DNA of 64,000 nucleotides from Candidatus Woesebacteria bacterium (GCA_963716475.1 OY970314.1:354981-418980), one strand, 5' to 3'; positions 6,652-35,961 are shown, counted from the stretch's first letter. The notes: generated from the sequence alone by a model not told the origin. Translations and numbers: made by a program.

Positions 6652-7143
6652 ATCTACATTGTCACCCGCTTTTATTTTATTTTGATCGGAAAAACCGGCG
6701 TTCACTTCAAGTACATAGTCTATGGGGCCGCCGGCAGAATACGTTTTTAAACTGTTGTCGGAAGTCCCCGGGGTAGGAAAAGGAATATTTTTATCAATGC
6801 GCACAATTTTGCCGTTCCCGATCCAAATCATATCCAATGGAATAAGCATATCTTTCATCCAAAAAAGAGGGCTCACTCCTTTTGTGTCAAAGATAAAAAG
6901 CATACCGCTGTCGGCTTTGAGAGAGGATACGCCTGAAAGACCCTGAGCTCTTTTTGCTTCCGTGTCGGCAATCTGTACACTAATTTTTTTTGTGCCAATA
7001 GTTATAGTCTTTTCGGAAGACGCCGTTGGTTGCGGCATGGATAAACCAGAGAACCCCAGAGGGAATGATTTTTGCGTGAATACGCCGACAACTACAAGGA
7101 AGGCGATAACTCCCAATATCGGAAGAACAACCTTTTTAAACAT
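6637..7143 (-). CDS. DUF192 family protein (COG1430), secreted/membrane-anchored
   Basis: N-terminal TM segment. DUF192 pattern ADTxxKRxxGL...GMLFIFD...FWMKDMLIPLDMIWI. Confidence 0.65.
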   Translation of the reverse strand: MFKKVVLPILGVIAFLVVVGVFTQKSFPLGFSGLSMPQPTASSEKTITIGTKKISVQIADTEAKRAQGLSGVSSLKADSGMLFIFDTKGVSPLFWMKDMLIPLDMIWIGNGKIVRIDKNIPFPTPGTSDNSLKTYSAGGPIDYVLEVNAGFSDQNKIKAGDNVDLSGI

Positions 7144-14951: not shown

Positions 14952-15086
14952 GAATTCTGAGAAGAGAAATGACAAAACGGAATAGTTTAAGCGTAAGCAA
15001 AAAACTTGAAAATGATGACCGTTTCGACGAAGGCCCATATGAACCTGCTAAAGCAGAACCATATGACTCCAGGTTGTAAGCAATCT

Positions 15087-15159
15087 GGGCCCATAGCTCA
15101 ATGGTAGAGCAGTACCCTCTTAAGGTAACGGTTGAAGGTTCGAATCCTTCTGGGCTCAC
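15087..15159 (+). tRNA. tRNA-Lys(CTT)
   Basis: GGGCCCATAGCTCAATGGTAGAGCAGTACCCTCTTAAGGTAACGGTTGAAGGTTCGAATCCTTCTGGGCTCAC. Anticodon loop CTCTTAA. Confidence 0.75.
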
Positions 15160-15218
15160 CCACTTCGTTCGTTTTCCCATCGGCTTCGATAGTGCCTATT
15201 TGTTAAAGAGTTTTGCAC

Positions 15219-15238
15219 ACGAATCCTTCTGGGCTCAC
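15219..15238 (+). repeat. exact 20-nt direct repeat of the tRNA-Lys 3' end (CGAATCCTTCTGGGCTCAC), att-like remnant
   Basis: 15141..15159 and 15220..15238 are identical, 61 nt apart. Confidence 0.6.
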
Positions 15239-15239
15239 A

Positions 15240-16091
15240 CTATTTACTCCATCTTGCCCATATTCCGGTTGAAAGAAGTCTTCCTGCAAATTTTTCCTTT
15301 AAAGTTAATTCACCATTTTCGATATGTCCCCCAAAATTCCCTAAATAATCATTCAGGGTATTGGCAAGCGTTATAGAAGAAGAAGAAATTGCGTACGCAT
15401 TTACCAAAACAAATAGGGGACTGTCTGATAAAATTCGTTTGCAGTTTGCCAGTAACTTTGGAAAATCCCGATTAAAATCCCAGACTTCACCGTTTGGACC
15501 GTGTCCGTATATCGGCGGGTCCATAATTATTGCGTCATATTTGACTCCCCTTTTGATCTCACGTCCGCTAAAAGTTACGGCATCATCAATTATCCAGCGT
15601 ATAGGAAGGGCATCCATACCATTTAGGTTTCTATTCTCGTTAGCCCAGGTTATGGCGGGTCTTGAAGAATCAAGATGTGTAACTTTTGCTCCGGCTTTTG
15701 CCGCAAAGAGTGAAGCAATTCCCGTATAGGCAAAGAGGTTAAGTAAATTAATTGGTCGGTCGGATGACTGCACGTTTTGATAAACATAGTCCCATTGTGT
15801 GGATTGTTCGGGGAAGACTCCTGTATGTTTGAAGGGTGAAAGTTTTGCCCAGAATTTGACTCCATTATACTCAAGTTCCCATTTTTCAGGAATATTACTT
15901 TTTATATTCCATCTGCCTTTATCTTCACTGGTTCTTTCAAAAAGGGCATCAGCTTTTTGCCACTCCCCTACCGATAATGTTTTTTTCCATATTATCTGAG
16001 GATCAGGTCTGTCAAGAAGATATTTTCCGAATCTCTCCAAACGCCTACCCTCACCACTGTCAAGCAAATCATAATCATTCATAGTGTTCAC
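15240..16091 (-). CDS. class I SAM-dependent RNA methyltransferase (RlmI/RlmK-like)
   Basis: FAYTGIASLFAAKAGAKVTHLDSS (SAM-binding fold) and IMDPPIYG (DPPxY-like catalytic motif). Confidence 0.65.
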   Translation of the reverse strand: MNTMNDYDLLDSGEGRRLERFGKYLLDRPDPQIIWKKTLSVGEWQKADALFERTSEDKGRWNIKSNIPEKWELEYNGVKFWAKLSPFKHTGVFPEQSTQWDYVYQNVQSSDRPINLLNLFAYTGIASLFAAKAGAKVTHLDSSRPAITWANENRNLNGMDALPIRWIIDDAVTFSGREIKRGVKYDAIIMDPPIYGHGPNGEVWDFNRDFPKLLANCKRILSDSPLFVLVNAYAISSSSITLANTLNDYLGNFGGHIENGELTLKEKFAGRLLSTGIWARWSK

Positions 16092-19054: not shown

Positions 19055-19138
19055 GCCGAGGTGGCGAAATGGTATACGCAAGGGCCTTAAGAGCCCTCGA
19101 GTGCATAACTCATGCGGGTCCGAGTCCCGCCCTCGGCA
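19055..19138 (+). tRNA. tRNA-Leu(TAA); integration target (attL) of the downstream element
   Basis: GCCGAGGTGGCGAAATGG...AGGGCCTTAAGAGCCCT with a long variable arm then GCGGGTCCGAGTCCCGCCCTCGGCA. The 3' end is repeated at 35858..35886. Confidence 0.75.
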
Positions 19139-20723
19139 CAATACGGGATTCCTGATCGGCAAAGACCCGATTTTGCCATACATACGACATATTCTCAGGT
19201 CCGATCCATTTATTGTTTTCCATCACACTGTTTTGAGCTTCCTTGAAGTATAGAAACACGTTATTCGGTTTAATTTCAATCTTTTTGTCCTTTATTTTCA
19301 GGTCCGATCCGATTATTTTCAAAACCATCTCCCGAGTGTAAGCATCGCCAGTATCAAAAATTTTTAGTACATTCTTTGAGAAGTTTATCGCATTGTCGAG
19401 AACCTCTCCCCACATGGCAATCCTCTTGCTTGTTTGTTGTTCCTTGAGTACCTGCTCACGCATCAATAATTTCGACTTTTTGGCCTCATAGGTATCATTA
19501 TCAATAATTCCGTCTATTTTCATTCCATAGAGTTTTTCCTTTCTTTCGTCAATGTCATTAAGTTCTTTTGTGATTGATTCTCTTTGTTTTATTGAAAAGT
19601 TAAACTCCTCATTGTTCCGGCGTTTCAGGACTTTTCTGAAGTATTCGGCAAACTCGGGATTAAGTTGTAGTTGGGAAACATATTCTCTGATTTGTTTTTC
19701 AAGATCTGCTGCCCTCAGGTACTTCGAATCACAAGGACCCTTTTTCTTCGTACAGTGATAATGAGTAAATATATGAGAAGTTCCATTCTTATAATGTTTG
19801 GTTTTTCTCTCTCCTGTTATGGACGCGCCACAGGGACATTTGAAGATTCCCAAATAAGGGATTGGATCAACCAAAGAATTGGGAGATCCGGCGTTCTTTG
19901 AATCAAGAAGCTTTTGAACCCTTATAAACTCAGACATTGTTATCATTGGCTTATGTATTCCTGGGTAAGTTGTTCCAGAATAGACAAAGTTACCGGTATA
20001 GAAAATGTCCCGAAAAAATCTGAAAGCCACAGTCCTAGATATAGGATTGCCCTTCTTCCCGGTAAGTGCCATTGAGTTCATCTTTTTGAGTATCTGTGGG
20101 ATCGTATAGTGCCCTGTAAGCATCATCTCCCACGCTTTCCGACAAAGACTCCATACTCTTTCATCAGGAACAATATACCTTGCCCCCTTCGGGAATTGAG
20201 GAGTATTGGAATAACCCAAAGGTGCGTTACCGGGATATTCTCCTCGCTCTGCCTTTAATTGAAGTCTGGCTTTGATAATCTTGCTTAATTTGTTTGAATA
20301 CTCTTCATTGAAAAGACTTTCGACACCTGCTTTGAGAATGTTATTTGTATCATAGACGTCGGTCGGGGTTATGATTAGAAGTTTTCCTTGAGTGATAAGG
20401 TCCCGGCAAATACCGTTCTCTTCGCCATTTCTTCCGATCCTGTCCATATTCGAAGTGACAATCGTATCTACTTTGCCCTTCTTGACCAACTCGATCATCT
20501 TGAAAAACTCAACTCTAACATCAGCCTTCCAACCGGTTTTTGCTTCTATAAATGGAGGCGCGATTAGTTTGATTCCTCTGTCCTGAATGATTCTTTTGCA
20601 GATAGTAAGTTGATCCTGAAGCGATAATATCTGCTTATTTTTATCCTCTGAACTCTTCCTACAATAAATGACACCTTGCATATTACCTTCTTCCATAATT
20701 GTCCTTTCCAAGGGGGTTGTCAA
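19110..20723 (-). CDS. large serine recombinase (integrase)
   Basis: N-terminal resolvase domain with GVIYCRKSSEDKNKQ (catalytic Ser), a recombinase domain and the zinc ribbon CPCGASITG...HYHCTKKKGPCDSKY. Its 3' end overlaps the tRNA-Leu 3' end. Confidence 0.8.
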   Translation of the reverse strand: MTTPLERTIMEEGNMQGVIYCRKSSEDKNKQILSLQDQLTICKRIIQDRGIKLIAPPFIEAKTGWKADVRVEFFKMIELVKKGKVDTIVTSNMDRIGRNGEENGICRDLITQGKLLIITPTDVYDTNNILKAGVESLFNEEYSNKLSKIIKARLQLKAERGEYPGNAPLGYSNTPQFPKGARYIVPDERVWSLCRKAWEMMLTGHYTIPQILKKMNSMALTGKKGNPISRTVAFRFFRDIFYTGNFVYSGTTYPGIHKPMITMSEFIRVQKLLDSKNAGSPNSLVDPIPYLGIFKCPCGASITGERKTKHYKNGTSHIFTHYHCTKKKGPCDSKYLRAADLEKQIREYVSQLQLNPEFAEYFRKVLKRRNNEEFNFSIKQRESITKELNDIDERKEKLYGMKIDGIIDNDTYEAKKSKLLMREQVLKEQQTSKRIAMWGEVLDNAINFSKNVLKIFDTGDAYTREMVLKIIGSDLKIKDKKIEIKPNNVFLYFKEAQNSVMENNKWIGPENMSYVWQNRVFADQESRIVPRAGLGPA

Positions 20724-20892
20724 TAGACTGAGTATTTAGCTCGGACCTGTCGAGTGATTCAAGAAACATAATCATTCGGGATGCCTGATCCTCACATTCT
20801 TCAAGTGTCAAATCAAGGTTGTAACATTTCTTGCAAAGCGCCTGAAATTCAAGAACTTCTTCGTGGTTTAGGTAGCCTGTTAGATATCTCAT
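20683..20892 (-). CDS. small hypothetical protein immediately upstream of the recombinase (candidate directionality factor/regulator)
   Basis: 69-aa ORF with position-based inference only. Confidence 0.25.
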   Translation of the reverse strand: MRYLTGYLNHEEVLEFQALCKKCYNLDLTLEECEDQASRMIMFLESLDRSELNTQSIDNPLGKDNYGRR

Positions 20893-20899
20893 TTTTTTC

Positions 20900-22642
20900 T
20901 CAATTTGTATCGTTTAAAATTTCCTCAAATTCCTTGAAATAATCGGATACAAATTTGTCGTCTTTTTGTATTTCTGATTTTTCAATAAATAGGTTGTCTT
21001 TGAACCTGACAACTTTCTTGGTACGCATTTCTTCGAAATCTTTTTTGGAGGCTTGCTTTAAGATGAAATTGTGGCTGTCGATAAACTTTCCGATTTCCTC
21101 TACCCACTTATCTATTTTGGACGTTAAATCCACTTCGTAAACTTTGGATAATTTTTCAAATAAATCTCTAAAAATTAACAGTGTGGAATAGTATTTTTTA
21201 AGTTCTTCAGTGGTGTTTTTAATTAATTCGTTTAGGCTATTGTCTTCAAATTCTATAACCCTTTCTCCATTTACCTCAGTCTCTTTTACAAACTCCATGA
21301 GCTCAATGTAATTCTTGATTCTGGCTATGGTTATTTGGGAGAAATTAAGGGCAAGTGGTTTACCATCTTCGTCCAGATTGGTGATCAAAAGTTCCCGGTC
21401 CAAATGTACCCCTTTTTGTTCCGGATCGTCATCTGCGTACAAAATTCCCAAGTTCGGATCGTAGCGGTCCACGTACTCATTGTGTTCCGCAATAAACTGA
21501 TAATTCCCTTTGAAGGCATAAAGACTATTTCCGGTGACAATATCTCCTTCCTTACTCATTTTTCCGGCAGAAATGAGGCTATCTAATGCGTTTTTGGATT
21601 TGGTTTTGGCCTTAATCCATTCCTTAAAGATAACATCTGAGGATGATTTGGTTACTCCGTTACAAGTTACAGTCTGTGTGGATTTAAATAGGGGCACATA
21701 TTCATCCAATAATCCGTTATCTAACCATTCCAGACAGACGGCTTTTAATTCCGAATCAACTGTTGTTTTGTGTTTGGCGGCATAATCATTAATGGCTTCC
21801 GCTATATTTTCAGCGGTATAGTCTAACAATGCTTCTTCAGGAGTCAGTTTCTTATCTTCCGATACCGCATCAAACGCTTTTTTAAACCTTTCCTCCTCCG
21901 GCAATGTATCCAGTTTGATCTTTCGTTTGTTAATCCACTTCTTAACAACTTCCTTTATGGGAATTGAAGCAAAATAATGCCAGAATTGATACTCCTTGGC
22001 GTATTGATTGTAGGATTTTTTAACAATCAGGTCTGCTAACTTGTTATTATCATCGGCTGTTAGTTTTTCCTTGCCGTCAAAGAGATTTGCAATTGCCTCT
22101 TCCTCGTCCAAATAATCAGTTTCATATTTAGCATCAGGGAAAAGAATTAATAAATCTTCTTGAAGCTCCTTACTTAAACTCTCAAAACCCAGTTGATATA
22201 CGGCGCGATTATAATCTAATCCTCCTTCTAATTTTACCTCCCGTTGTTTTTTGATTATCTCTAGAGCTTGATCAATCTTTACAAGCTTGATGTCATCCAA
22301 TCTTTCAACCCATCTTTTCAATTCCCTAAAAGCCGGGTAAATTAATAAAAAGTTGCTTATTTGTTTTTCCTGGAAAAAAGTAATTTGTGCATTTAGAAAT
22401 ATGGTCTGGGCATCGAGTTCAGCAAATCCGATTGTTCTCCAGCCTCTAATAAAAAGGTTATACTCTTTGACTTCGTAATTGTTCTTTGGTGTCCAACCTT
22501 CAGTTAAAGTATGTTCTTCTGCCTCGCTAAGTACAGCCTTACCAGTTTTTTGTTTCTCCATATAATTGTGAACAACAAGGAGAACTCTCTCTTTTGGAGT
22601 TAAGTTTTCTGAAATCCTAGCTAGATTTAAATCTTTTGACAT
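20900..22642 (-). CDS. hypothetical protein (580 aa), element cargo
   Basis: Long, acidic, Lys/Glu-rich ORF with no recognisable motif. Confidence 0.4.
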   Translation of the reverse strand: MSKDLNLARISENLTPKERVLLVVHNYMEKQKTGKAVLSEAEEHTLTEGWTPKNNYEVKEYNLFIRGWRTIGFAELDAQTIFLNAQITFFQEKQISNFLLIYPAFRELKRWVERLDDIKLVKIDQALEIIKKQREVKLEGGLDYNRAVYQLGFESLSKELQEDLLILFPDAKYETDYLDEEEAIANLFDGKEKLTADDNNKLADLIVKKSYNQYAKEYQFWHYFASIPIKEVVKKWINKRKIKLDTLPEEERFKKAFDAVSEDKKLTPEEALLDYTAENIAEAINDYAAKHKTTVDSELKAVCLEWLDNGLLDEYVPLFKSTQTVTCNGVTKSSSDVIFKEWIKAKTKSKNALDSLISAGKMSKEGDIVTGNSLYAFKGNYQFIAEHNEYVDRYDPNLGILYADDDPEQKGVHLDRELLITNLDEDGKPLALNFSQITIARIKNYIELMEFVKETEVNGERVIEFEDNSLNELIKNTTEELKKYYSTLLIFRDLFEKLSKVYEVDLTSKIDKWVEEIGKFIDSHNFILKQASKKDFEEMRTKKVVRFKDNLFIEKSEIQKDDKFVSDYFKEFEEILNDTN

Positions 22643-22643
22643 T

Positions 22644-23063
22644 TTAATGTTTTGAAATTGAGCGTTTGCGTTCCAAAAGAACGCTTTCTACCATCTCTAC
22701 CCGTTGGTTCAGATTGGAGGCTTCTAGGGCCTTTAGGATGTGGCTGGCGAGGTATCCTACGGTGTTAGCGATATTTGGGGGAATCTCACCGCTCCGGACG
22801 CCATTTATCGTGCTTTCAAGAAGGGTGGCCACTTCTGTCGGGTCTTTAATGCTTAGTGGTTCAAGATTCAGTTCAACCTTTTTACTGGCAAGGCCACCTC
22901 TGACAAGCGCCATATGTCTTTCGACTTCTACGTCTGGATTGTGGACAAAACAGTACACGCTCCCTTTCATGGATGCGGCACCGCATTGATCTCCGTTTTC
23001 TTTTATATAACTGCATTTTTTCTCTTCCATATAAGTTACGCTTATGGGGTGTACCCCCCTCAA
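22644..23063 (-). CDS. hypothetical Cys4 (zinc-finger-like) protein
   Basis: CSYIKENGDQCG...CFVHNP gives four Cys in the N-terminal 40 aa. Confidence 0.35.
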   Translation of the reverse strand: MRGVHPISVTYMEEKKCSYIKENGDQCGAASMKGSVYCFVHNPDVEVERHMALVRGGLASKKVELNLEPLSIKDPTEVATLLESTINGVRSGEIPPNIANTVGYLASHILKALEASNLNQRVEMVESVLLERKRSISKH

Positions 23064-23143
23064 ATTTGATATACTATTGTTTAGTTCTTTTTGCCTCCTA
23101 GTGGGTTCAGTTCCTAGTAGATTGACTAGGAGGCAATACAGAA

Positions 23144-23707
23144 CTACTCCTTTGTTATAAAAGGAGATTCCCCGTCAAAGATAAGATCCAGGTTGATCTG
23201 CTCTAAACGCTCATCAACCAGTTTTTGCATTTCCTTTGACAGCTTTACCTTTGGTTGGGGTAAAAGGGAATACTTAACGTCCATAGGGGAAGTCCCGTTT
23301 GTACGAGTGATCGTTACATCGTAGTCACGAAGATCTCCCCACGCTTCTGAATCCTCAAGACCTTTCATAAGCCTCTGCAATCCCGCTTGGGTCAACTCAA
23401 GGATCTGAACGTCTCCAAGTTCTTTATTTAAAACGACAAACATCCAAAAATGCTTTCCTCTGTTGCGCGGATCCGTTGCATTTCTTATCTCATCCGGAAG
23501 CTCATCGTATGTTCTAACACGAATTGGAGTTCTCTTTTTACCTTCTTCTTTCCAGTATTCAAAACCAACGATTGCGTTAGTAAGAACCCTGAAAGTGCTA
23601 TCGCCTTCATCAAACTTCATGTAGGCTGATCTGCTTTTTGGCATTTCATAGTCTTTGGGTAATATGCTCATATTTTTCTCACCTCCTTTCCGCTGTATAA
23701 AAAGCAA
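23144..23707 (-). CDS. hypothetical protein
   Basis: 187-aa ORF with no confident family. Confidence 0.35.
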   Translation of the reverse strand: MLFIQRKGGEKNMSILPKDYEMPKSRSAYMKFDEGDSTFRVLTNAIVGFEYWKEEGKKRTPIRVRTYDELPDEIRNATDPRNRGKHFWMFVVLNKELGDVQILELTQAGLQRLMKGLEDSEAWGDLRDYDVTITRTNGTSPMDVKYSLLPQPKVKLSKEMQKLVDERLEQINLDLIFDGESPFITKE

Positions 23708-24033
23708 TACTTATTAAATTGAACTGAACTTTCTAATTTGAGCTGGTCCTTAACGGTCCAGGGTTCCGAGACGCCGAAGAGTGCTTCAATGTTGTTGATT
23801 AGAGGAAATATTACTTCAGCCTTATAAAATTCATGTTTTGGTTTGGAGCTTCTGATATAGGGAAGTGTGTATTCACAAAAGCTTTTGAACGTCTTTGTTG
23901 AGATAATTTTGTCAAATTCAATATATATTTTTGTGACATTTTCATTCTTGATAACAATTGCGTCAGCGTTCCTGTGGCAATAAGAACTAAGTACCTCGTC
24001 GCAGTTTACAAATTTGGTTACTAGGTATTTCAT
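23668..24033 (-). CDS. hypothetical protein
   Basis: 121-aa ORF overlapping its neighbours by a few codons (operon-like). Confidence 0.3.
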   Translation of the reverse strand: MKYLVTKFVNCDEVLSSYCHRNADAIVIKNENVTKIYIEFDKIISTKTFKSFCEYTLPYIRSSKPKHEFYKAEVIFPLINNIEALFGVSEPWTVKDQLKLESSVQFNKYCFLYSGKEVRKI

Positions 24034-25730
24034 ACGGGTTCGACCTCACTTTCTACAGGAAACATATTTTGTGATGCCTCCACGCCTTTCTGTGGCTGAA
24101 TGGGAGCATCGGAAGCACGGGAAGCATCCTCCGAGTTGCCAGCATGGTCTGTGTTTGTATCTGGCAACTTGTCAGCTACCCGTTGATTTGCTCCCATTGC
24201 CTCCATGCTTCCATTCTGGGGCTGGTTTTTCATGGAGGCATTTTCATTTACGGAAGCATTTTTTGTTTTCTTGAGGGTGATCGTGTTATTGGTAATTTCC
24301 TCGCCGTGGGTTACAGATATGCCCATCGCCGCAAGATTGGTTTTAATAAGATTTATCTTTCTCCAAAGCCATGTTGCAGATTTAGGGAACCCGTAACTTC
24401 CTCCAACTTCGAGTTTGTCTGCTGTAGCAAGTTTGGATAGTTCGGTAAAAAGGTCTGAGCTTGCCCCTGACCAGTCGTTATGGATTGACATAAACTCCAG
24501 AATTGTTTGGGCGACAGGGGAAGCGTCAATTGCAGCCTTATTTTGTCTGGCAATATTCTTTTCAAAAGCCTGTAAAAATCCATCAACTTCATATCCCAAA
24601 GAAACAGCTGCTGCGGCAGCTACTCTAGCGTAATCAGCCATACGGGGTCTGGTAGGAAGTTTAATATCCTCCTTAATCTTTAGAACCTGAGAAGCTATGT
24701 CAAAGAGGGCTCCAAGGATCTGGGGTTTTTCTTTTTCAAAATCATTCCAGAATTTAGTTTCTTCTCTGCGGTTTGAGTCACTGATTCTTTCAAGAGTAAA
24801 GATCAAACTTCGGTCAAGCAAATCAGCCTTCTCGGCTACCAGGTTTATTCCGTTTAGTCCAACTGCCACCAATAACTCAAATATAATATCGGAATCATCT
24901 GAGAATAATTTCCGTTTTGAAAAACCTAAACCTGTCACAAACCCGGATAAAGAATCCGAGCCTTCAGTTGAGAGGTAACTTAAATTATCAAAATACAGAC
25001 AATAATGGTGACTTGCCATTTGTGTCAGTTCATCTATGGCAGACCTCATCTTCAGTAGGTCAACACGGGAAGGGTCAATTAGCTTTCTGATGACACGGAG
25101 AAGGGTTGATTTCGCGCTGCCTTGCTCTCCTGTCGCGATTATCATTGCCCGAGGGATATCGCAGAAGAGAATAGCCACAAGATAAGTCAAAAACAAAATC
25201 TTGTCCTCGGAGTTTTTGAGGTTAACATACTCGAGTATTTTGCTCAATGCACCGCCTTTTTCAGGAATAGACTGAACCTTTTGATGAGTAAATCGTCGAA
25301 ATAGCGGCGCTTTTGCTTTTACAACTTCCCAGCCTGAGGGAGTTATCTCAACAATGTTGACGTCATCTCCAATATCGTAGGAGATAGTTTCCTCAATTTT
25401 AGCTATGCGATTAAAGAGTGATATTTTTATGCCTTCGTGTTGAGATTTTCCTTCCAATGCAGCCATAGCCTGAGAAAAGATTTCACTGGAAAAACCTTCA
25501 TTAAAAGCTTCCCAATAAACTCCTGAAACCCATCGTCTGAATACCGCACCGGAAACGGAGTAACCAACCGCGGGCCTATCTGGTAACTGTACTTGGGGTT
25601 CGCCAAATTGATCCAAAAAGAACTTGCAACCTCTCTTTAGCACCAGTGTTATCAATATGTCGCCAACTTTCTGCTGTTTGACTAATTCATTAGCCGCTTT
25701 GTCGAGTACTTCTTTATTTTTAGCTTTCAT
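24030..25730 (-). CDS. P-loop NTPase of the phage/plasmid primase-helicase (D5/VirE/P4-alpha C-terminal) type
   Basis: Walker A IIATGEQGSAKSTLL and Walker B HHYCLYFDNL. Lies immediately downstream of a CHC2 primase zinc-finger gene. Confidence 0.55.
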   Translation of the reverse strand: MKAKNKEVLDKAANELVKQQKVGDILITLVLKRGCKFFLDQFGEPQVQLPDRPAVGYSVSGAVFRRWVSGVYWEAFNEGFSSEIFSQAMAALEGKSQHEGIKISLFNRIAKIEETISYDIGDDVNIVEITPSGWEVVKAKAPLFRRFTHQKVQSIPEKGGALSKILEYVNLKNSEDKILFLTYLVAILFCDIPRAMIIATGEQGSAKSTLLRVIRKLIDPSRVDLLKMRSAIDELTQMASHHYCLYFDNLSYLSTEGSDSLSGFVTGLGFSKRKLFSDDSDIIFELLVAVGLNGINLVAEKADLLDRSLIFTLERISDSNRREETKFWNDFEKEKPQILGALFDIASQVLKIKEDIKLPTRPRMADYARVAAAAAVSLGYEVDGFLQAFEKNIARQNKAAIDASPVAQTILEFMSIHNDWSGASSDLFTELSKLATADKLEVGGSYGFPKSATWLWRKINLIKTNLAAMGISVTHGEEITNNTITLKKTKNASVNENASMKNQPQNGSMEAMGANQRVADKLPDTNTDHAGNSEDASRASDAPIQPQKGVEASQNMFPVESEVEPV

Positions 25731-26338
25731 ATTTGTAATTTGCTAACAATCTCCATAAATCCCATTTCCGGGTTAGTCTTTTGCATAAAATCGATTGCAT
25801 TGTTGCCATGGGCGGCACAGCCAAAACAGTGCCATGAACCATTCGGATAAATGTAAAAAGAAGGATTACGTTCTTCGTGGAATGGGCAAGCTACACGAAA
25901 CTTGCAACCACACGGCCTTGCGTCAGGAATCAAATCTTGAGTCGGGTACTCCCTTGCTTTTTGGACCTTGGCGCTGGTAGTATATTTAACTCCTGGTTCA
26001 TAGCCGGAGAGCCGTAGCCAGTATTTTAACCACTTTTTAAAGTTTTCTTCATGTAGTTCGACTGAACATTCCAACACTTTTTTGTGAAAATCGCTGAGGG
26101 GTTTGGCAGTTTTTATTTCGGCAAAAAATTTTTCCCTATCTGCATACAGTTCTTTAATTTTGGCTACGGCAACATCTTCGACGCAACTCTTAAATTCTGG
26201 TTCAATAGGAATGTACCGCGGTGGATTTGTTACTTTCCTTTTGAATTTAAGTGGGAAAGCCGTGTGGTTTATAACGAGTTGAGGTTGGCTATCCATAAAT
26301 TTGTTCACTGAAACCCAATCGATTCGAGATGTTTTCAT
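25727..26338 (-). CDS. CHC2-type primase zinc-finger protein
   Basis: C-terminal CPFHEERNPSFYIYPNGSWHCFGCAAHGNNAIDFM matches the DnaG/primase CHC2 zinc finger. Confidence 0.6.
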   Translation of the reverse strand: MKTSRIDWVSVNKFMDSQPQLVINHTAFPLKFKRKVTNPPRYIPIEPEFKSCVEDVAVAKIKELYADREKFFAEIKTAKPLSDFHKKVLECSVELHEENFKKWLKYWLRLSGYEPGVKYTTSAKVQKAREYPTQDLIPDARPCGCKFRVACPFHEERNPSFYIYPNGSWHCFGCAAHGNNAIDFMQKTNPEMGFMEIVSKLQI

Positions 26339-26345
26339 AATTTCT

Positions 26346-26612
26346 TTATGTTTGTTGATACAATTTGTCCTTTAATTGTTTTATTGCCATCACAAATTTA
26401 CGAACATCAACCATAGACTCCGGTGAGTCCTCCGATGAATAATTGAAGTTTTGAAGTAATCGCTCACGTTCTGGAGTATCTAAAAAAACAAATTCGGAGC
26501 GTCTTGAATCAGTACGATCTATGTTGACAAGTTCCAACCCTTTGGTAAAAAGGAAAGCCGCAACATAAAAGTTGCTTGTTTTAAAATATCTGTCGTCACT
26601 TTTATCCTTCAT
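26346..26612 (-). CDS. hypothetical protein
   Basis: 88-aa ORF with no motif. Confidence 0.3.
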   Translation of the reverse strand: MKDKSDDRYFKTSNFYVAAFLFTKGLELVNIDRTDSRRSEFVFLDTPERERLLQNFNYSSEDSPESMVDVRKFVMAIKQLKDKLYQQT

Positions 26613-26943
26613 ATGCGATTAGTCCTAAAAATTCGATGGGTGTCGCGGATTCCAATAGATACTCGCCGTTTTCTTCTCGGAGGATCTCTGAAAAAGTCAG
26701 ATGATTTGTATCAAGAAACCTCTTCTTTCGATAGGCTGCTTTTATTAAATCTCTAATCTTGTTATTCAGAATATTGTTTACGAAAGTCGAGGCTGAAGCG
26801 TACATGGGATTAAACAGATTGCCCTTAAGCCAAAGGTGAATCCGAAGTTCCTGGGCAACATCTTCCCAGTCCATATTGGGAACCTGGGCCTTGATGGCCT
26901 TTGCTACGATAACATTCTCATATTTAGAAAAAATTATACTCAT
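26602..26943 (-). CDS. sigma-70 region-2-like protein (minimal ECF-like sigma factor; no region 4 detected)
   Basis: DWEDVAQELRIHLW...FNPMYASASTFVNNILNNKIRDLIKAAYRK resembles ECF sigma region 2. Confidence 0.4.
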   Translation of the reverse strand: MSIIFSKYENVIVAKAIKAQVPNMDWEDVAQELRIHLWLKGNLFNPMYASASTFVNNILNNKIRDLIKAAYRKKRFLDTNHLTFSEILREENGEYLLESATPIEFLGLIAYEG

Positions 26944-27148
26944 ATCTATTGAAGGACTCTTGGAGTGGTTGAGGCCAATAAAAAAGGGCTCTCAATCAAC
27001 CCCAATATGTCCATAATTCATATTGGAATCAATTGATAGCCCTTCTTATCGCTACCTGGGTTAGCCTTGTTAGCTAACTATGTAAATTATACCATAAAAC
27101 CTAAAAACTTTTCGGGTTTTTATCCCCTCTATAGTAATATACGACAAT

Positions 27149-29074
27149 TCATGCACCCCAACCCCAATCAATTTCCCTGTAGTTAATATTTTTACACCTG
27201 GGACATCGTGCCGATAGGGTAAGGTTCCCATAATTTAGCTTTACCTTTATGGGAATTTGATTCGCCGTCCACAGGCTGACCACATTATTATGCGCGAACT
27301 TATAAAGCGTTCTTTCTCCACAAAAATCGCACTTCCACTCACCAACTTTAATTTTTGACCAGTCTTGCCCAATATCCAAGGCCCCAGATTCAATCCTTGC
27401 TAAACACTCATCACAAATAGGAGTATCCGAGACCTGACTATCACCGTGTTGTTGATGTCTAATTACCGGTTTTGCTCTACATACTCTACAGAACAGAAGC
27501 TCCATTTGGAATTCAATATCGGAAAGCTCAGCGCCCTTATTTTGCCAGTGCTGAGCGTTCTTGTGGACCTTTTGATATTCCTTGTTATAGAAATCTAGCT
27601 GTTTTTCTCTGGTCAAAGTTTTTAATTTTTCGCTTCGCTTAGACCAAAAAAAATTGCCAAAATTATGCTCCTCATCCCAAGCTTTGTTTTCTTTTTCCCT
27701 TATCTTTTTATGACAGACTTCAAGTATTTCCCATAACTCTCTTTTTAGGTCACTAAGCCTGAAGTCTATGGCATTATGTATTTCGCTTTTAACAAAAAGT
27801 TCATAATCCTCCTTTTTGGCCTCCTCGGAAGTAATTTCCTTCTTTTGCAGCTTCTGCCATATTTCATCGTCCCAAAGACTAAGAAACCCGCGTTTATTTT
27901 CAGCTAATTCTTTCGTGGCTTGTCGTAAAACCTGTTCAACTGATAACTTGGTATTCGGGTCCAGGTCGTCGATTGTTAAACTTTCCTCAAGCTCGATTGG
28001 TCTAACACCGTTGGCAATAAAGTGCATATCTCCATACCTTTTTTCATAATCCTTTAGTTCTTCCTCGAAGCCCTTAATTCTAGTTTGTACTTCATCATCG
28101 GCAAACTCTTTGTTGTCCGCCTTCGCTGCCCATATCTTAAAACCCAAGACGGTTGCCCAAATTGATTTCGTTTCAGTTCCGTGGACATACTCGCTTTTTG
28201 GTGCAAGGTATGGACGAATACCCCTATCTCCATAAAGTAACTCAAAGATGGGTGGCAATTTTTTACCAAATACAGCCTCCGCGACCTCTAAAACTAGGTC
28301 ATAAACTGTATATAGCTCCTGGGCTAGCATTGCACCACCTTTAAATAAATCCCTTCGCCATTGCGGATGAAGATGGATGTAGTAATACCAATTTTCAAGC
28401 GGGTCAATCTGGATAGCAACTTCAGCAATTGTCTTCAAAAGGACGTTGAGATCGGATTCAGAAAGCGAATACTTCTTTAATAATTCTGGCCTACCTTTAA
28501 TAAGTGAAGTATCAAAATATAATTCCGGTGCACCGTTAAAATGCCGTTCCTTGTACCGGCTAAATCTTTGGTACCTCGAACTTTTAAGAGAGTGGAGTAG
28601 TCTCAAAAAATTATTAAAATTTACACATAGATCAACCACATTATTAGGAAACGATTTACTACCCCTCTTGGCAATTGTTATGTTGAAAGCAAATCCAGAA
28701 GCCCCCCAACTAACCATTCTGAACGCTTGTTGTTTGTAAAAGTCTAAATCCTCATTGACCCAAAGTTTTCCTTCGTGAACTTGGTTTTTTGACAACGCGG
28801 TAATTATAAAAATTTGATGGGGACTATAATAATTAACTAAAGCTCCTTTTTCTGCCCCATTTTCGTGAACTTTTTCTTTAACCTGAAGTAGTGGTTCTAA
28901 AAACCCATCGGATTCTGCTGCTCTTAGAAAACTCTCATCTACATTGTTAATTTTTTCAGTGCGGGAGTAATCATATTTACAGAACTCTATAAAAGATTTT
29001 TCCGAAAGTAACTTCTCCTTTATAATTTCAAATGGATATTTATTCTCATCTTTAGTACTCATATTTATATTCAC
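27149..29074 (-). CDS. hypothetical 641-aa protein with C-terminal multi-zinc-ribbon module
   Basis: CRVCRAK...CDEC, CDFCGERT and CPRCKNINY CxxC pairs in the last 120 aa. Confidence 0.4.
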   Translation of the reverse strand: MNINMSTKDENKYPFEIIKEKLLSEKSFIEFCKYDYSRTEKINNVDESFLRAAESDGFLEPLLQVKEKVHENGAEKGALVNYYSPHQIFIITALSKNQVHEGKLWVNEDLDFYKQQAFRMVSWGASGFAFNITIAKRGSKSFPNNVVDLCVNFNNFLRLLHSLKSSRYQRFSRYKERHFNGAPELYFDTSLIKGRPELLKKYSLSESDLNVLLKTIAEVAIQIDPLENWYYYIHLHPQWRRDLFKGGAMLAQELYTVYDLVLEVAEAVFGKKLPPIFELLYGDRGIRPYLAPKSEYVHGTETKSIWATVLGFKIWAAKADNKEFADDEVQTRIKGFEEELKDYEKRYGDMHFIANGVRPIELEESLTIDDLDPNTKLSVEQVLRQATKELAENKRGFLSLWDDEIWQKLQKKEITSEEAKKEDYELFVKSEIHNAIDFRLSDLKRELWEILEVCHKKIREKENKAWDEEHNFGNFFWSKRSEKLKTLTREKQLDFYNKEYQKVHKNAQHWQNKGAELSDIEFQMELLFCRVCRAKPVIRHQQHGDSQVSDTPICDECLARIESGALDIGQDWSKIKVGEWKCDFCGERTLYKFAHNNVVSLWTANQIPIKVKLNYGNLTLSARCPRCKNINYREIDWGWGA

Positions 29075-29136
29075 AAAAAAACCCGTTTATCACGGGCAGT
29101 GTAATATCTGTATTTTACGCCTTTCCAAATAAAACG

Positions 29137-29997
29137 CTACTTAGCTGGAGATGCTTTATTCAAAAATTCTGAAATAATATTTACCGGAATTATTACGCCA
29201 AGGTTTTGATAGTTGCCAGTTAAAACAGCTGAAGGAATTCCAACCATGCAATCATTTTGATCAACAGCAAGCCCTCCTGAATTTCCATTATCTATATTGG
29301 CAGACGTTAGGATATCCCCATCATCAGAAAAACTACTTATGATTCCGTCTGTAATGGTTAGATTGTATCCGCCACTTGTAACTGGATAACCATAAATCCT
29401 AACTGCGTCACCCAATTTTGGACTATTGTTTTTGCAACTACTAGGGAACACAAAAGCAGAAAAAGTTTTAGGGTAGGTACCCCAAACCTTCCCGTCCGAA
29501 TCCTTATAAGCAGAGGTTACTACCAATACTGCCATATCATATTGCTTACTCAATTTAGGAACAATATATGGCTCTGCATTGTAGATTTCAGCGGGGGCAC
29601 CAGTATTTGGGTCAGGCAAGCTAACCAAACAGCCTTTTGAACCAGCTATAACATGATTGTTTGTTAATATCGTTCCGTCCGTTAACCATATTGTTCCTGA
29701 TCCTCCTTCTTTGTTATCGCAAAATACGTTGACAACAGAAGATGCTACATTATACGGTACGGTCGGGCTAGGTGACCCACCAGACGGTGTGTTGGAATTG
29801 GGAGAATTTTGAGAGTAGGCAATTATAAAAATTACCAATAGTATTAAAAAAACTAAAATTAATCCCTTTCTACGTTTAATCCACCCGCCTAAACGGTACT
29901 TCAATCTTGAGAGTCTCCTCCATACGATTTTCTGCCCACAATTCGGGCAGAATCTTTCATCCGACTTAATTTGATTGCCACAATTTTTACAATACAT
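29137..29997 (-). CDS. N-terminal zinc-ribbon + TM + trypsin-like (S1) serine protease
   Basis: MYCKNCGNQIKSDERFCPNCGQ zinc ribbon and a TM helix. Candidate S1 triad motifs LTNNHV (His), DMAVLVV (Asp) and GNSGG (Ser). Confidence 0.55.
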   Translation of the reverse strand: MYCKNCGNQIKSDERFCPNCGQKIVWRRLSRLKYRLGGWIKRRKGLILVFLILLVIFIIAYSQNSPNSNTPSGGSPSPTVPYNVASSVVNVFCDNKEGGSGTIWLTDGTILTNNHVIAGSKGCLVSLPDPNTGAPAEIYNAEPYIVPKLSKQYDMAVLVVTSAYKDSDGKVWGTYPKTFSAFVFPSSCKNNSPKLGDAVRIYGYPVTSGGYNLTITDGIISSFSDDGDILTSANIDNGNSGGLAVDQNDCMVGIPSAVLTGNYQNLGVIIPVNIISEFLNKASPAK

Positions 29998-30008
29998 AAT
30001 AAACTTTC

Positions 30009-30383
30009 TTAATCCTCTCTCATTCCGATTGTTGGAACAAAGCGCCCTATGTTATTAATAAGGTATATTGGCGTAAGAAAAAAAGAAATCATACCCCACC
30101 ATCCAAGGAAAAGCGTAGTTAGAGTCCTCTTTTTAAACTCACGATTTATACATTTTTTACAAAGATTGCCTTTTATAGACGAACTCTGACGCATAACCAG
30201 CATGCCTATATTTTGGTAAAACTCGACATATTTTGTTGGAGTAAGGCTGCCACACACCTGACAATGGTTATTAGTCGGTCCAAAAACCGGCGAAGAGGGA
30301 TTATTCTTATTAATTATTGTTCCACAATGCTGACAGAAGTTGTTGCTTTTAGGATTGCTTTTTCCACATTTTTCGCAGAACAT
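30009..30383 (-). CDS. zinc-ribbon membrane protein (paralogous N-terminal DZR-like domain)
   Basis: MFCEKCGKSNPKSNNFCQHCG plus further CxxC pairs and a C-terminal TM helix. Confidence 0.45.
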   Translation of the reverse strand: MFCEKCGKSNPKSNNFCQHCGTIINKNNPSSPVFGPTNNHCQVCGSLTPTKYVEFYQNIGMLVMRQSSSIKGNLCKKCINREFKKRTLTTLFLGWWGMISFFLTPIYLINNIGRFVPTIGMRED

Positions 30384-30509
30384 AATCTTTGAGAAATTTG
30401 CCTAAACTACCCCCAAATTGAATTGTACTCTAAAAATAAATCCATTTCTTAGATTTTATTGAAAAATAGGTGTAGAATCAATTTGGTTGGGTAGTCTAAA
30501 ATAAATAAT

Positions 30510-31133
30510 ATGTACTGCAGTAATTGTGGGAAACACAACTCCGAAGGCAGTAAGTTTTGCGAACACTGTGGCTCACAGCTTATAAAAGACTCTGCAGAAA
30601 ATAAATCCGTTAGCCAGGCTAAGGCTGTAGTTGATCCCCCAAAAACAGAAAATAAGGAGCCTTTGCCAAAAGATAAAAAAGTAAATGCTGGACTTGGGGG
30701 CTGGTTGGCATTAGTTGGACTAGGAATGATCGTGGGGGTTGTTTGGCAAAGCTACAGCATATTTGGATATTTTTCCTATTTATCAAATACTTATACTATT
30801 CCTGGTTACTCAAGTCTTTTATGGTTTGAGTTTTTAATAGGAGTCGCCTTTATAGGTTCTCTTGTTTATCTAATCTATTTATATTTCAAAAAGAAGAAGA
30901 ATTTTCCGAAATACTATGTTTTTTATTTAATCGCCTCTATAGTTTTTGCATTATTGGATTGGCTCTGGGTAGCTTCATTACAGGCTCCGACTCAAGAACT
31001 TCAAAAAATACTAAACGACACGGTAACGCAAAATTCAAGCAATGTATCCCGAACCGTAGTGCAATCAGTAATTTGGATTTTGTATATGTTAAAGTCGAAA
31101 CAGGTTAAGGCAACTTTTATTGAAGATAAATAA
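30510..31133 (+). CDS. zinc-ribbon membrane protein (paralogous N-terminal DZR-like domain)
   Basis: MYCSNCGKHNSEGSKFCEHCGS followed by 4 TM helices. Confidence 0.5.
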   Translation: MYCSNCGKHNSEGSKFCEHCGSQLIKDSAENKSVSQAKAVVDPPKTENKEPLPKDKKVNAGLGGWLALVGLGMIVGVVWQSYSIFGYFSYLSNTYTIPGYSSLLWFEFLIGVAFIGSLVYLIYLYFKKKKNFPKYYVFYLIASIVFALLDWLWVASLQAPTQELQKILNDTVTQNSSNVSRTVVQSVIWILYMLKSKQVKATFIEDK

Positions 31134-31141
31134 ACTAAACT

Positions 31142-31741
31142 ATGAAAATTATTAAGCAAGTCGTCTATGTTGTAGCAGCGCTGGCAGCATTCGGTTTGGT
31201 CAGGTGGGGTATTTCAGCTCTTCAAACTAACAATGCCAGTAATAACACTGCCAATTATTTTACAAATGAGACTTGGCAACCATTTAACTCAACAGAAGGC
31301 GGTTTTAGTATTAACTTTCCTAAATATCCAACAACCAATCCCTCAGAAACCCAAAGCACGGGTGGTGTGACCTACGTTTCTACACAATATAGCGCCGAGG
31401 GCAGTGACGGAGATAGTTATGTTGCTATTTACGGTTATTACCCAAATCTTTTATCAAATAAATACAATGCAAAAAGTGGAATTGAAGGTAGCATTAACGG
31501 TATGGTTAGCTCAGATAAATCGAACCAGTTAATATCCTCAAACTTTGTGAATGTCGGTAGCCATCAGGGAGCGGATTACGTAATTTACAATAAAGACGTG
31601 GCTTCTTATTTGAGAGGAAGAGTAATTGTTGTTTTAGAAGGAAGTAATCCTGTCAAAATATATATCCTCATGGATGCGTCAAAAAACGCAAACGCCACAG
31701 ACAACTATACAAAATTTATTAACAGTTTTGAGATTCAATAG
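31142..31741 (+). CDS. secreted hypothetical protein
   Basis: Signal/TM N-terminus with a Ser/Asn/Thr-rich body. Confidence 0.4.
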   Translation: MKIIKQVVYVVAALAAFGLVRWGISALQTNNASNNTANYFTNETWQPFNSTEGGFSINFPKYPTTNPSETQSTGGVTYVSTQYSAEGSDGDSYVAIYGYYPNLLSNKYNAKSGIEGSINGMVSSDKSNQLISSNFVNVGSHQGADYVIYNKDVASYLRGRVIVVLEGSNPVKIYILMDASKNANATDNYTKFINSFEIQ

Positions 31742-31742
31742 T

Positions 31743-31762
31743 TAGTGAGTTGGAGTGGGGGG
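31743..31762 (+). repeat. intergenic motif TAGTGAGTTGGAGTGGGGGG (copy 1 of 4)
   Basis: Same motif at 32688..32709, 34949..34965 and 35753..35770, all in plus orientation. Confidence 0.5.
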
Positions 31763-31807
31763 TATTTCTTAGGTTTTCCTGAAAAAGTGGTGTAAAATCG
31801 ACTTGTT

Positions 31808-32671
31808 ATGAGTAAAGGGAAAGCTCGAACCAAAAAATCTCAAAAAGTTAGCGAAAAAACCACTATTTTCTCCACTTCGGCAAAGTATCTAATGGCCATA
31901 ATTGTTGCTCTTGGTTTTGTTGCGGCATTTTCTGTATATGCAAAAGCCCAATTGGAAAAAAGTCCTTTTCTCGCAAGCCCAACACCAATTGCTCTCCCCA
32001 CCTTCACACCTATCCCCGTGACACCCACGCCTACAGTTGATCCTAACCCGATAATTACCTGCAATATCAATGTCAGTTGTGGGGGTGGTTCAAAACAATT
32101 GAGACAGAGTGTCTGTAACAACATGATATGTTGCCTCTACAGTACTGAGTGCGGTGGGCCAAAATTTGTAGCAAAGAGTCAATGTCCTGCGAACGGGACA
32201 TGCTGCCAGGTTGGAAATAAATGGACTTATTACTTATCGAAAGATAAGTGCACACAGGATCAAAATGCTTACAATTCCAGTGTCAACCAAAACAATAACA
32301 CTTATATTCCGTCTACCTATACGCCACCAACCTACTATACGTGTACCCTTTATTATCCCGCATTAAAATTATATCAAACATACACTTCACTTTATAAAAC
32401 AAAGGCTGAATGTGATTCCGCCCAGGCTTCTCTCAACCAAGGTTCACAAACGGTTCAATATACAGCTCCCACAACAGCTCCATACCAAGCTCCACAAATG
32501 ACCAAAAGCCAGTGTCAAGCAAGTGTAAATGATAAATATGGGAGTCTTATGCGCAGTTATGGGTGCTACTATCCGTGCCCGGCCACCGGAGACTGTGGAA
32601 GCTCCTCAGTGTGTGAAGCTTATTGGTATCAAGCTCAAAAAGACATGAACAGCTGCAATCAATATCCCTAG
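31808..32671 (+). CDS. secreted Cys-rich, Pro/Thr-linker protein
   Basis: N-terminal TM segment, a PT-rich linker and more than 25 Cys. Confidence 0.45.
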   Translation: MSKGKARTKKSQKVSEKTTIFSTSAKYLMAIIVALGFVAAFSVYAKAQLEKSPFLASPTPIALPTFTPIPVTPTPTVDPNPIITCNINVSCGGGSKQLRQSVCNNMICCLYSTECGGPKFVAKSQCPANGTCCQVGNKWTYYLSKDKCTQDQNAYNSSVNQNNNTYIPSTYTPPTYYTCTLYYPALKLYQTYTSLYKTKAECDSAQASLNQGSQTVQYTAPTTAPYQAPQMTKSQCQASVNDKYGSLMRSYGCYYPCPATGDCGSSSVCEAYWYQAQKDMNSCNQYP

Positions 32672-32687
32672 CTCGATCTATTTTATA

Positions 32688-32709
32688 AATAGTGAGTTGG
32701 GTTGTGGGG
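32688..32709 (+). repeat. intergenic motif AATAGTGAGTTGGGTTGTGGGG (copy 2 of 4)
   Basis: See 31743..31762. Confidence 0.5.
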
Positions 32710-32726
32710 TTATTGTGTTTTAAAAG

Positions 32727-34892: not shown

Positions 34893-34948
34893 TTTTATTG
34901 GTATTTAGAGGGCTTATGTGAATCTTAGCATCTGGGGATAAAAATAAA

Positions 34949-34965
34949 CAGTGAGTTGGAGTGTG
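34949..34965 (+). repeat. intergenic motif CAGTGAGTTGGAGTGTG (copy 3 of 4)
   Basis: See 31743..31762. Confidence 0.5.
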
Positions 34966-35015
34966 TATTCCAAAGATTTCTCCAAAAAAAGCATAGACTC
35001 TGGAAATGAATGGAA

Positions 35016-35726: not shown

Positions 35727-35752
35727 ACTCGTATTTTACACCTTTATATGTA

Positions 35753-35770
35753 TAGTGAGTTAGGGTGAGG
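35753..35770 (+). repeat. intergenic motif TAGTGAGTTAGGGTGAGG (copy 4 of 4)
   Basis: See 31743..31762. Confidence 0.45.
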
Positions 35771-35857
35771 AATAAAGTCTCCGGTATTCGTTAAGTTCCT
35801 GAAGTTTAGAAGCTAGAATATCAGTCTCACTTGGAGTATCATTCAGATAGGCGAATA

Positions 35858-35886
35858 GGTCCGAGCCGAGTCCCGCCCTCGGCACA
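35858..35886 (+). repeat. attR-like direct repeat of the tRNA-Leu(TAA) 3' end
   Basis: AGGTCCGAG[CCGAG]TCCCGCCCTCGGCACA versus 19115..19140. A weaker third copy AAGTCCGAGTCCCGG sits at 35941..35955. Confidence 0.65.
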
Positions 35887-35961
35887 GTAAGTTCAAATTA
35901 CATAAATATTCATTTTAAACAATAAAATATAGCCTTGAATAAGTCCGAGTCCCGGAAAGAG

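Follow-up and report, generated by a model that had tools for sequence, protein, structure and literature searches.

The window, the whole 64,000-nt stretch of DNA analysed here, is part of a source contig of ~983 kb. An intact tRNA-Lys(CTT) gene lies between the gene of a predicted secreted protein, for which no Pfam match was found, and a convergent gene for an RlmI-like SAM-dependent methyltransferase (Table 1). Homologues of the methyltransferase (identity from 85% downwards) are named Microgenomates or Woesebacteria, and the genome was therefore assigned to the CPR/Patescibacteria. The 3′ end of the tRNA-Lys gene is repeated directly in front of the methyltransferase stop codon (cta, 15240–15242, minus strand), one base separating the two, which bears out the original prediction that the second copy abuts this stop. 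Fourteen tRNA genes were found in the window; a second copy of the 3′ end was present solely for tRNA-Lys(CTT) and tRNA-Leu(TAA).

Table 1 Features of the window discussed in the text. LSR large serine recombinase.
Feature	Position	Strand	Remarks
Predicted secreted protein, 466 aa	13551–14951	+	Conserved left-hand neighbour
Region A, 135 nt	14952–15086	+	Between the stop of the 466-aa gene and the tRNA; not in compact L002, L005 and L008 (alignment)
Intact tRNA-Lys(CTT)	15087–15158	+	Rfam RF00005, 70 bits
Repeat copy 1, putative attL side	15141–15159	+	T-loop C56 to discriminator A73 plus C
Spacer B, 60 nt	15160–15219	+	Read as remnant of inserted DNA
Repeat copy 2, putative attR side	15220–15238	+	Exact copy; lies at the ancestral junction as a displaced tRNA-Lys 3′ fragment
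RlmI-like SAM-dependent methyltransferase	15240–16082	-	PF10672, 2.5e-14; convergent; conserved right-hand neighbour
tRNA-Leu(TAA), anticodon UAA	19055–19139		Last 20 nt are CCGAGTCCCGCCCTCGGCAC
LSR gene, 537 aa	19110–20723	-	Stop inside tRNA-Leu; probable start near 20681
Island in tRNA-Leu(TAA), 16.7 kb	19120–35885	+	Exact 20-nt repeat CCGAGTCCCGCCCTCGGCAC at 19120–19139 and 35866–35885
Island cargo: DnaG-type zinc-ribbon protein	25727–26338
Island cargo: trypsin-like protease	29137–29997
Island cargo: HSP70-like protein	32727–34892		A DUF2569 protein is a further cargo product

The repeated sequence, CGAATCCTTCTGGGCTCAC, occurred exactly twice in the window, both times on the plus strand (15141–15159 and 15220–15238), and covers the T-loop from C56, the 3′ strand of the T-stem, the 3′ strand of the acceptor stem, the discriminator A73 and one further C. 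No third site was found in the window with up to three mismatches allowed. A chance origin was ruled out by 100 dinucleotide-preserving shuffles of the window, none of which contained the repeat. The bases bordering the two copies differ (t at 15140 versus a at 15219; c at 15160 versus a at 15239), and the exact repeat is therefore 19 nt long. The original prediction was thus right about an exact duplicate at these positions and wrong about its length, given as 20 nt; the separation it put at 61 nt measured 60 nt (79 nt from start to start). ARAGORN called the intact tRNA at 15086–15162, and neither ARAGORN nor Rfam gave a second tRNA or tRNA-like match near copy 2. The same strain is represented by just two short Logan contigs besides the source contig; L001 (ERR12035932) stops within copy 2 and L208 within the tRNA, and the window spacer is covered by neither. 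L001 ends 12 nt into copy 2 (15228–15239), immediately before the single difference between the window (CCTTC) and the common allele (CCATC). This end point could reflect a co-occurring variant, or simply tRNA k-mers shared within the sample.

The spacer between the copies starts with CCACTTCGTTCG, which is the native tRNA trailer in the L016 lineage, and ends with TTTTGCACA, a junction motif common to L016, L120, L102, L123, L168 and the attR of L035. Alignment placed no counterpart of the spacer in relatives with a compact gene layout. No ORF or recognisable gene fragment was found between the two 19-mers of the window, no terminator, promoter or stable fold was predicted in the spacer (fold z-scores of -1.07 and -0.61), and Rfam matched only tRNAs at the locus, leaving the spacer without a match. 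A short segment at 15184–15194 (TTCGATAGTG) faintly resembles the variable loop and T-stem of the tRNA-Lys (GGTCGATGG).

Upstream of the tRNA, region A contains older debris at 14982–15008, comprising a degenerate tRNA 5′ fragment and a GTAAGCAAA..CTTG motif. Further along, 8 nt of the tRNA 5′ end (GGCCCATA) are repeated at 15032–15039 and followed by a 47-nt insert (15040–15086), such that 8–9-nt repeats of the tRNA 5′ end bracket an insert ending CCAGGTTGTAAGCAATCT across 15032–15086. A 9-nt 5′ repeat with an insert ending CCAGGTTGTRAGCAATCT also occurred in L024 and L095; the counterparts lie at 8076–8126 in L024 and at ~7670–7745 in L095, the latter with the same repeat and insert end. Fifty-one nucleotides of region A were 90% identical to L024/L135, the adjacent genes being saturated at silent sites. 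Besides these homologues and those described below, no other copies of the spacer or of the upstream segment were found in the window or in the fetched loci.

The wider distribution of the duplicate was surveyed in 163 methyltransferase-bearing loci from GTDB genomes, JGI metagenomes and other assemblies. L002/L003, L005–L008, L013 and L023 had a compact order of 466-aa secreted protein, tRNA-Lys(CTT) and methyltransferase, in which the tRNA 3′ end lay 0–10 nt from the methyltransferase stop or overlapped it; in L023 the terminal TCA of the tRNA, read on the opposite strand, is the TGA stop. Long contigs reached through the homologues P0002 and P0018 had the compact layout too, and those of P0007 and P0011 had other layouts. 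The CTCAC-A-CTA junction that follows copy 2 in the window is the one that follows the complete tRNA in L002. Copy 2 therefore marks the former 3′ end of the tRNA gene, and the intact tRNA-Lys(CTT) is shifted 79 nt away from its ancestral spot beside the methyltransferase stop. An arrangement fixed in all relatives and never holding inserted DNA, named beforehand as counter-evidence, was not what we found: the duplicate was lacking in the nearest relatives and scattered over the methyltransferase tree.

The same spacer type occurred in the window, the L016 population and L120, each with a fragment of tRNA positions 55/56–73 beside the methyltransferase and a complete tRNA-Lys 50–90 nt away. 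These homologous spacers follow the pattern YCACTTCGTTCG..TTCGATNGTGCC..TGCAYA^CGAATCC (the caret marks the break), have the same end points and measure 60 nt in the window, 60 nt in L120 and 50 nt in the L016 population. Identity between the window and L120 spacers was 47/61 (77%; shuffles gave a mean of 33.4 and a maximum of 40), and the 4-fold sites of the adjacent gene were saturated (38%). Within each of the three genomes the two 19-mers were identical; between genomes they differed at three positions, which co-vary with the 5′ half of the tRNA. The structure was identical in four independent assemblies of the L016 population (L016, L112–L114), which rules out an assembly artefact as the source of this kind of structure. 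YCACTTCGTTCG trails copy 1 in the window and in L120, and L016 has it as a native trailer, placed after the methyltransferase-proximal copy and before the stop codon, a pattern that fits a trailer which would have arrived with foreign DNA. In L120 and L123 the methyltransferase frame lacks the ancestral stop and reads through the antisense 19-mer fragment into the spacer, adding ~14 residues in L120.

Variants with clearer tRNA debris were found in about eight more lineages, including L102, L123, L140, L030, L118 and L126. The debris-rich spacers consist of CCCTTTTAATCG (anticodon-loop-like), a hairpin, tRNA positions 38–52 and 18–40 nt ending TTTG(C/T)A(TA), and are followed by the 19-mer. 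The hairpin after CCCTTTTAATCG (L102, L123, L168, L035, L118, L126 and L140) showed compensatory changes in its stem (GCAGC/GCTG, TTTGC/GCAAA, TCCGCC/GGCGGA), which suggests a selected DNA or RNA structure. Cloverleaf remnants of a tRNA pseudogene at copy 2 had been regarded as speaking against integration. They were found in part in relatives, where positions 38–52 precede the fragment, and as no more than the faint trace described above in the window; displaced att sites are themselves just such tRNA fragments.

Identity to the tRNA ended sharply at the T-loop, being 19/19 within copy 2, and the bases just before it bore no relation to the tRNA. A break of the same form, TTTG(C/T)A(YA)^CGAATCC, recurred in L016, L120, L102, L123, L168, L035 and L030, and in about ten lineages overall. 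Its constant position in the T-loop points to site-specific recombination and not to decay of a tandem copy.

Alleles of tRNA-Lys(CTT), compared over about 45 loci, were at odds with the methyltransferase tree. The window allele was identical to that of L095 (73/73) and differed from that of its sister lineage L002 at >12 positions. Identical 73-nt alleles were likewise shared between distant clades by L002, L096 and L120, by L102 and L018, and by L129 and L116, and sister lineages could differ at >12 positions, compensatory stem changes included. This suggests that the single-copy tRNA-Lys gene has been replaced horizontally. In L102, L123, L126, L140 and L035, the fragment beside the neighbouring gene was unlike the intact tRNA and paired with a 5′ fragment further upstream that belonged to another allele (GGGCTCA with TGAGCTC in L126; GGGCCCA with TGGGCTC in L123). 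A clean parallel to the presumed scar of the window is L102, where the fragment beside the methyltransferase was the sister-clade allele and the intact tRNA a foreign one, with the same sequence as in L018. Judged by such pairings, the intact gene of several relatives clearly appears to be a replacement lying between pieces of an older gene.

The orientation of the tRNA varied as well. It was inverted relative to the methyltransferase in L012, L017, L020, L021, L024, L025, L029, L035, L127, L129, L136, L139 and L212, which are scattered on the tree, and the gene seems to have been inverted, or re-inserted in either orientation, repeatedly. A promoter-like TGnTAAAAT box often stood just after the methyltransferase stop in these lineages. 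L025 (~6918–7130) and L140 carry a complete tRNA-Lys(CTT) with an encoded CCA, surrounded by a 9-bp inverted repeat (CATTCAAAA / TTTTGAATG) and placed inside the anticodon-loop region of a broken older tRNA-Lys whose halves still pair.

Inserted DNA between the two copies, for which the original prediction had looked to related genomes, was present in L035/L137 (Woesebacteria GW2011_GWB1_39_10). Here the complete tRNA-Lys and the 19-mer fragment lie 4.2 kb apart, and the interval holds a large serine recombinase (LSR) of 524 aa (Resolvase+Recombinase+Zn_ribbon_recom), a 221-aa ORF and an MFS transporter. The whole tRNA is covered, in antisense, by the LSR reading frame. The L035/L137 fragment is followed by the same sequence as the intact L168 tRNA, and we take this sequence to be the native flank. 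L136/L213 and L214/L215 also have intact LSR genes of the same family that overlap the tRNA-Lys next to this methyltransferase; at the far end of the L213/L136 element there was no 19-mer fragment, the only likeness being a T-loop-like GTTCGAAT. L168 had been considered as a mid-sized element, with 1.35 kb between copies and NUDIX- and HAD-like genes without a recombinase, and this candidacy was weakened by the finding that the DNA beside its tRNA is native flank. Insertions of 2.8–4.5 kb between methyltransferase and tRNA (L014/L015, L026) were set aside as ordinary genes with no recombinase, probably reflecting a different synteny.

An association of LSRs with tRNA genes extended beyond tRNA-Lys. 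All 17 LSR genes in the fetched loci ended in or beside a convergent tRNA gene, and six isoacceptors served as targets (Leu-TAA, Leu-TAG, His, Gly-TCC, Lys-CTT and Arg-TCT); the places concerned were the loci L012, L023, L024, L025, L035, L112, L114, L115, L133, L136 and L213–L215. The family comprised at least 6215 homologues (E ≤ 1e-30). A G[FILV][EG][PLH] motif, corresponding to the antisense T-arm, occurred within the last 70 residues of 78 of the 120 best homologues (P0121–P0240) versus 2 of 813 background windows. The last ~25 LSR residues are an antisense translation of the tRNA, with a G[FILV]EP-type motif in the tail. The attachment site of these recombinases seems, from these gene ends, to lie within the 3′ end of the recombinase gene.

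A larger, intact element of this kind resides in the window itself, in tRNA-Leu(TAA) (Table 1). Its repeat (20/20) starts at the same T-loop position as that of tRNA-Lys, and there is no second full tRNA. The genome therefore displays an occupied site of this kind. The LSR at its left end was 29% identical to that of L035 (E 1e-51), and no tyrosine integrase was found among the tested island ORFs. The element was not present in L002 and L005; L002 has 2 nt between its tRNA-Leu and a PIG-L gene, whose window ortholog (75% identical) is at 36629–37417. A 12-nt partial third copy of the tRNA-Leu T-loop region (GTCCGAGTCCCG) was observed at 35943–35954, ~60 nt past the right-hand repeat, with ~740 nt of extra DNA between it and the PIG-L gene. 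It may be older debris at the tRNA-Leu site.

The element that might have left the spacer was sought in IMG/VR. Its free attP form would be the junction TTTTGCACA-19mer-CCACTTCG. Scans of IMG/VR with spacer-left, upstream-segment and attP-form patterns gave no matches, or 36 chance 17-mer matches without extended similarity, and IMG/VR matches to the 19-mer itself were discarded as irrelevant, being only high-GC proteobacterial prophage or tRNA-Lys(TTT) sequences. Neither the ends of the resident tRNA-Leu element nor LSR C-termini were significantly similar to the spacer. Only the 6–8-nt junction motif was common to the remnant and the L035 attR.

Taken from comparative sequence evidence, the duplicate is probably, and in our view somewhat better than evenly so, the mark of a site-specific recombination event within the tRNA-Lys(CTT) T-loop, a scar of the restorative attL/attR type. 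An integrative element, most likely an LSR element of the kind that uses tRNA genes as attachment sites group-wide, would have recombined with the tRNA-Lys gene at or just 5′ of C56. It would have brought its own copy of the last 19 nt of the tRNA, so the gene would have stayed intact at the left junction (attL, 15087–15159), and the host's own 19 nt would have remained joined to the methyltransferase stop (attR, 15220–15238). The element would since have been reduced to ~60 nt (15160–15219), leaving today an attL–attR pair without a recombinase and presumably unable to excise unaided. The intact tRNA-Lys would then be a host–element hybrid and the 60 nt would derive from the two ends of the element. 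We infer that an LSR made this scar and not another recombinase; the family acting at the window tRNA-Lys was probably of the serine and not of the tyrosine type. The core of the original prediction, that a duplicated tRNA 3′ end is an integration scar of an element now decayed or deleted, is thus supported by the ancestral junction, the LSR insertions in relatives and the tRNA-Leu island. Its alternative of a duplicated att core retained as a landing pad gained no support.

Several observations sit uneasily with this reading. The sister lineage L002 has a different tRNA-Lys allele, the 3′ end of which is not copy 2, and this would argue against a restorative scar. That no recombinase lies between the copies, and that L136/L213 are without a far-end 19-mer, speaks against a scar left by an LSR. 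Neither a parent element nor an attP form turning up in the IMG/VR scans, the dissimilarity of the spacer to the resident element's ends and to LSR C-termini, and the very short repeats and target disruption usually described for serine-recombinase elements (PMC5704250) count against it as well. Three independent deletions to the same remnant, in the window, L016 and L120, are unlikely, these lineages being scattered and each standing beside duplicate-free ones. The identity of the 19-mers within each genome, together with a spacer conserved at 77% where neutral sites are at 38%, is not predicted by simple decay. Together with the incongruent alleles and the apparent replacements in relatives, these points could reflect a replacement gene, a small cassette spreading horizontally or homogenised copies. 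We consider unlikely a broader reading in which a large serine-recombinase family of these ultra-small bacteria attaches at the loops of tRNA genes, its gene ends written over the tRNA, and repeatedly restores, replaces, inverts and horizontally exchanges the single-copy tRNA-Lys(CTT) gene, with the conserved 60-nt spacer and its matching 19-mer being a small non-autonomous unit or att decoy that is kept or spread, and no passive scar.

Among the rival explanations, one holds that the intact tRNA-Lys came complete with the inserted DNA, the old host gene having been disrupted and never rebuilt. Copy 2 would be the 3′ end of the disrupted gene, the debris at 14982–15008 its other end, and the element would have shrunk to a tRNA with short flanks. 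We regard this as somewhat unlikely, although several observations agree with it: the fragments of L102, L123, L126, L140 and L035 are unlike the intact tRNA and are paired with 5′ fragments of other alleles, the alleles do not follow the methyltransferase tree and that of the window is shared with L095 and not with its sister L002, in L035 the LSR extends over the entire tRNA, the tRNA of the window is flanked by debris left and right, and tRNA-dependent lysogeny offers a precedent (PMC10865867). However, copy 2 matches the intact gene at 19/19 positions and the supposed 5′ remnant of the same old gene at only ~10/17, so both remnants cannot be equally old without homogenisation, and the LSR island in tRNA-Leu of the same window is restorative, with a 20/20 repeat and no second full tRNA.

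Two further explanations were considered. The unit of tRNA, spacer and 19-mer could be an old module kept by selection or gene conversion, acting as a decoy or protected att site or as a 3′ trailer element, and no passive scar. The conserved spacer beside saturated 4-fold sites, the 19-mers that agree within three genomes and differ between them at positions co-varying with the tRNA 5′ half, the similar spacer lengths and an architecture stable over four assemblies of one population are in its favour. Yet the module is missing from most relatives, the nearest included, no promoter, terminator or stable structure was predicted and no Rfam match found, there are only three independent examples, and a recent horizontal spread of related mobile sequence accounts equally well for the conservation, which makes such a module very unlikely. 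Local duplication by replication slippage, or a tandem tRNA copy now decayed, would need no mobile element, and the proximity of the direct repeats (79 nt apart) and the faint likeness of TTCGATAGTG to GGTCGATGG, a hint of older tRNA-derived sequence, agree with it. We nevertheless find it extremely improbable, as a tandem event would duplicate the spacer too, a decaying copy would not hold 19/19 identity beside unrelated sequence with a sharp T-loop break, about ten lineages have this same break, which in L035 stands at the end of a recombinase-bearing island, and the ancestral junction lacks the sequence that follows copy 1.

The duplicate chiefly marks tRNA-Lys(CTT) as an attachment site in a ~1 Mb genome of an uncultured lineage whose mobile elements are poorly described. 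Integration at tRNA sites in these bacteria appears to be the work of LSRs that use long tRNA-restoring repeats, and not of tyrosine integrases, and an essential single-copy tRNA gene seems to have been swapped between lineages. If confirmed, this would add a class of natural serine-integrase attachment sites and a route of gene flow in organisms thought to be poor in mobile elements.

Islands and prophages in tRNA and tmRNA genes are reportedly flanked by the regenerated gene and a displaced 3′ fragment, as Williams is said to have described in 2002. The window resembles such tRNA-integrated islands in having an intact tRNA at one end, a 3′ direct repeat at the other, a T-loop sublocation and empty sites in relatives, and displaced tRNA fragments are used as island boundaries in the Islander database (PMC4383910). 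It differs from these islands, which carry tyrosine integrases, in that only 60 nt lie between the repeats and the recombinases found at the site in relatives are LSRs. Cis-mobilizable decayed integrative elements (CIMEs) have kept attL and attR and lost the genes for integration and transfer (PMC5704250). Like CIMEs, the tRNA-Lys locus of the window has a putative attL and attR with no recombinase between them, at a site that related elements still use; CIMEs, however, span hundreds of bases to kilobases and stem from tyrosine-integrase ICEs of Firmicutes, whereas the window remnant measures 60 nt and is no more than a candidate for mobilisation in cis.

Partial tRNAs left by decayed elements are known from the tycheposons of Prochlorococcus (bioRxiv 10.1101/2020.12.28.424599). 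Common to both are tRNA hot spots, partial tRNAs and degenerate elements from successive integrations, a minority with LSRs and streamlined hosts. The phylum and the element families are different, and here the debris lies within ~300 nt of a single tRNA. Unlike in the tycheposon case, the tRNA-Lys gene itself appears, from its alleles and orientations, to have been exchanged and inverted repeatedly. In the tRNA-dependent lysogeny of actinobacteriophages the tRNA gene is not rebuilt and the element's same-isotype tRNA takes over (PMC10865867), which is similar to those relatives whose intact tRNA-Lys allele differs from the flanking fragments. These phages use tyrosine integrases with ~10 bp shared between attP and attB, whereas the window repeat is 19/19 and could equally be restorative; the window fragment has the sequence of the intact gene, which fits restoration and replacement alike.

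With the classical large serine integrases (phiC31, Bxb1, TP901-1, TndX), attP and attB have only 2 to about 12 bp in common and the interrupted target is mostly a protein-coding gene; integrases at tRNA sites are usually of the tyrosine type. The recombinases found at this site in relatives and at the window tRNA-Leu have the Resolvase, Recombinase and zinc-ribbon architecture of phiC31-type integrases. They differ in their repeats of 19 nt (tRNA-Lys) and 20 nt (tRNA-Leu), in the restored tRNA 3′ end and in having the 3′ end of the recombinase gene across the repeat; serine-recombinase elements usually have very short direct repeats and a disrupted target (PMC5704250). The duplicate itself belongs to a known kind, that of displaced tRNA fragments and decayed elements, and is a routine marker of past integration, here at a hot spot of insertion. 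The less usual parts appear to lie outside it, in the serine recombinases, the 19–20-nt repeats, the gene end placed over the site and the exchange and inversion of the tRNA.
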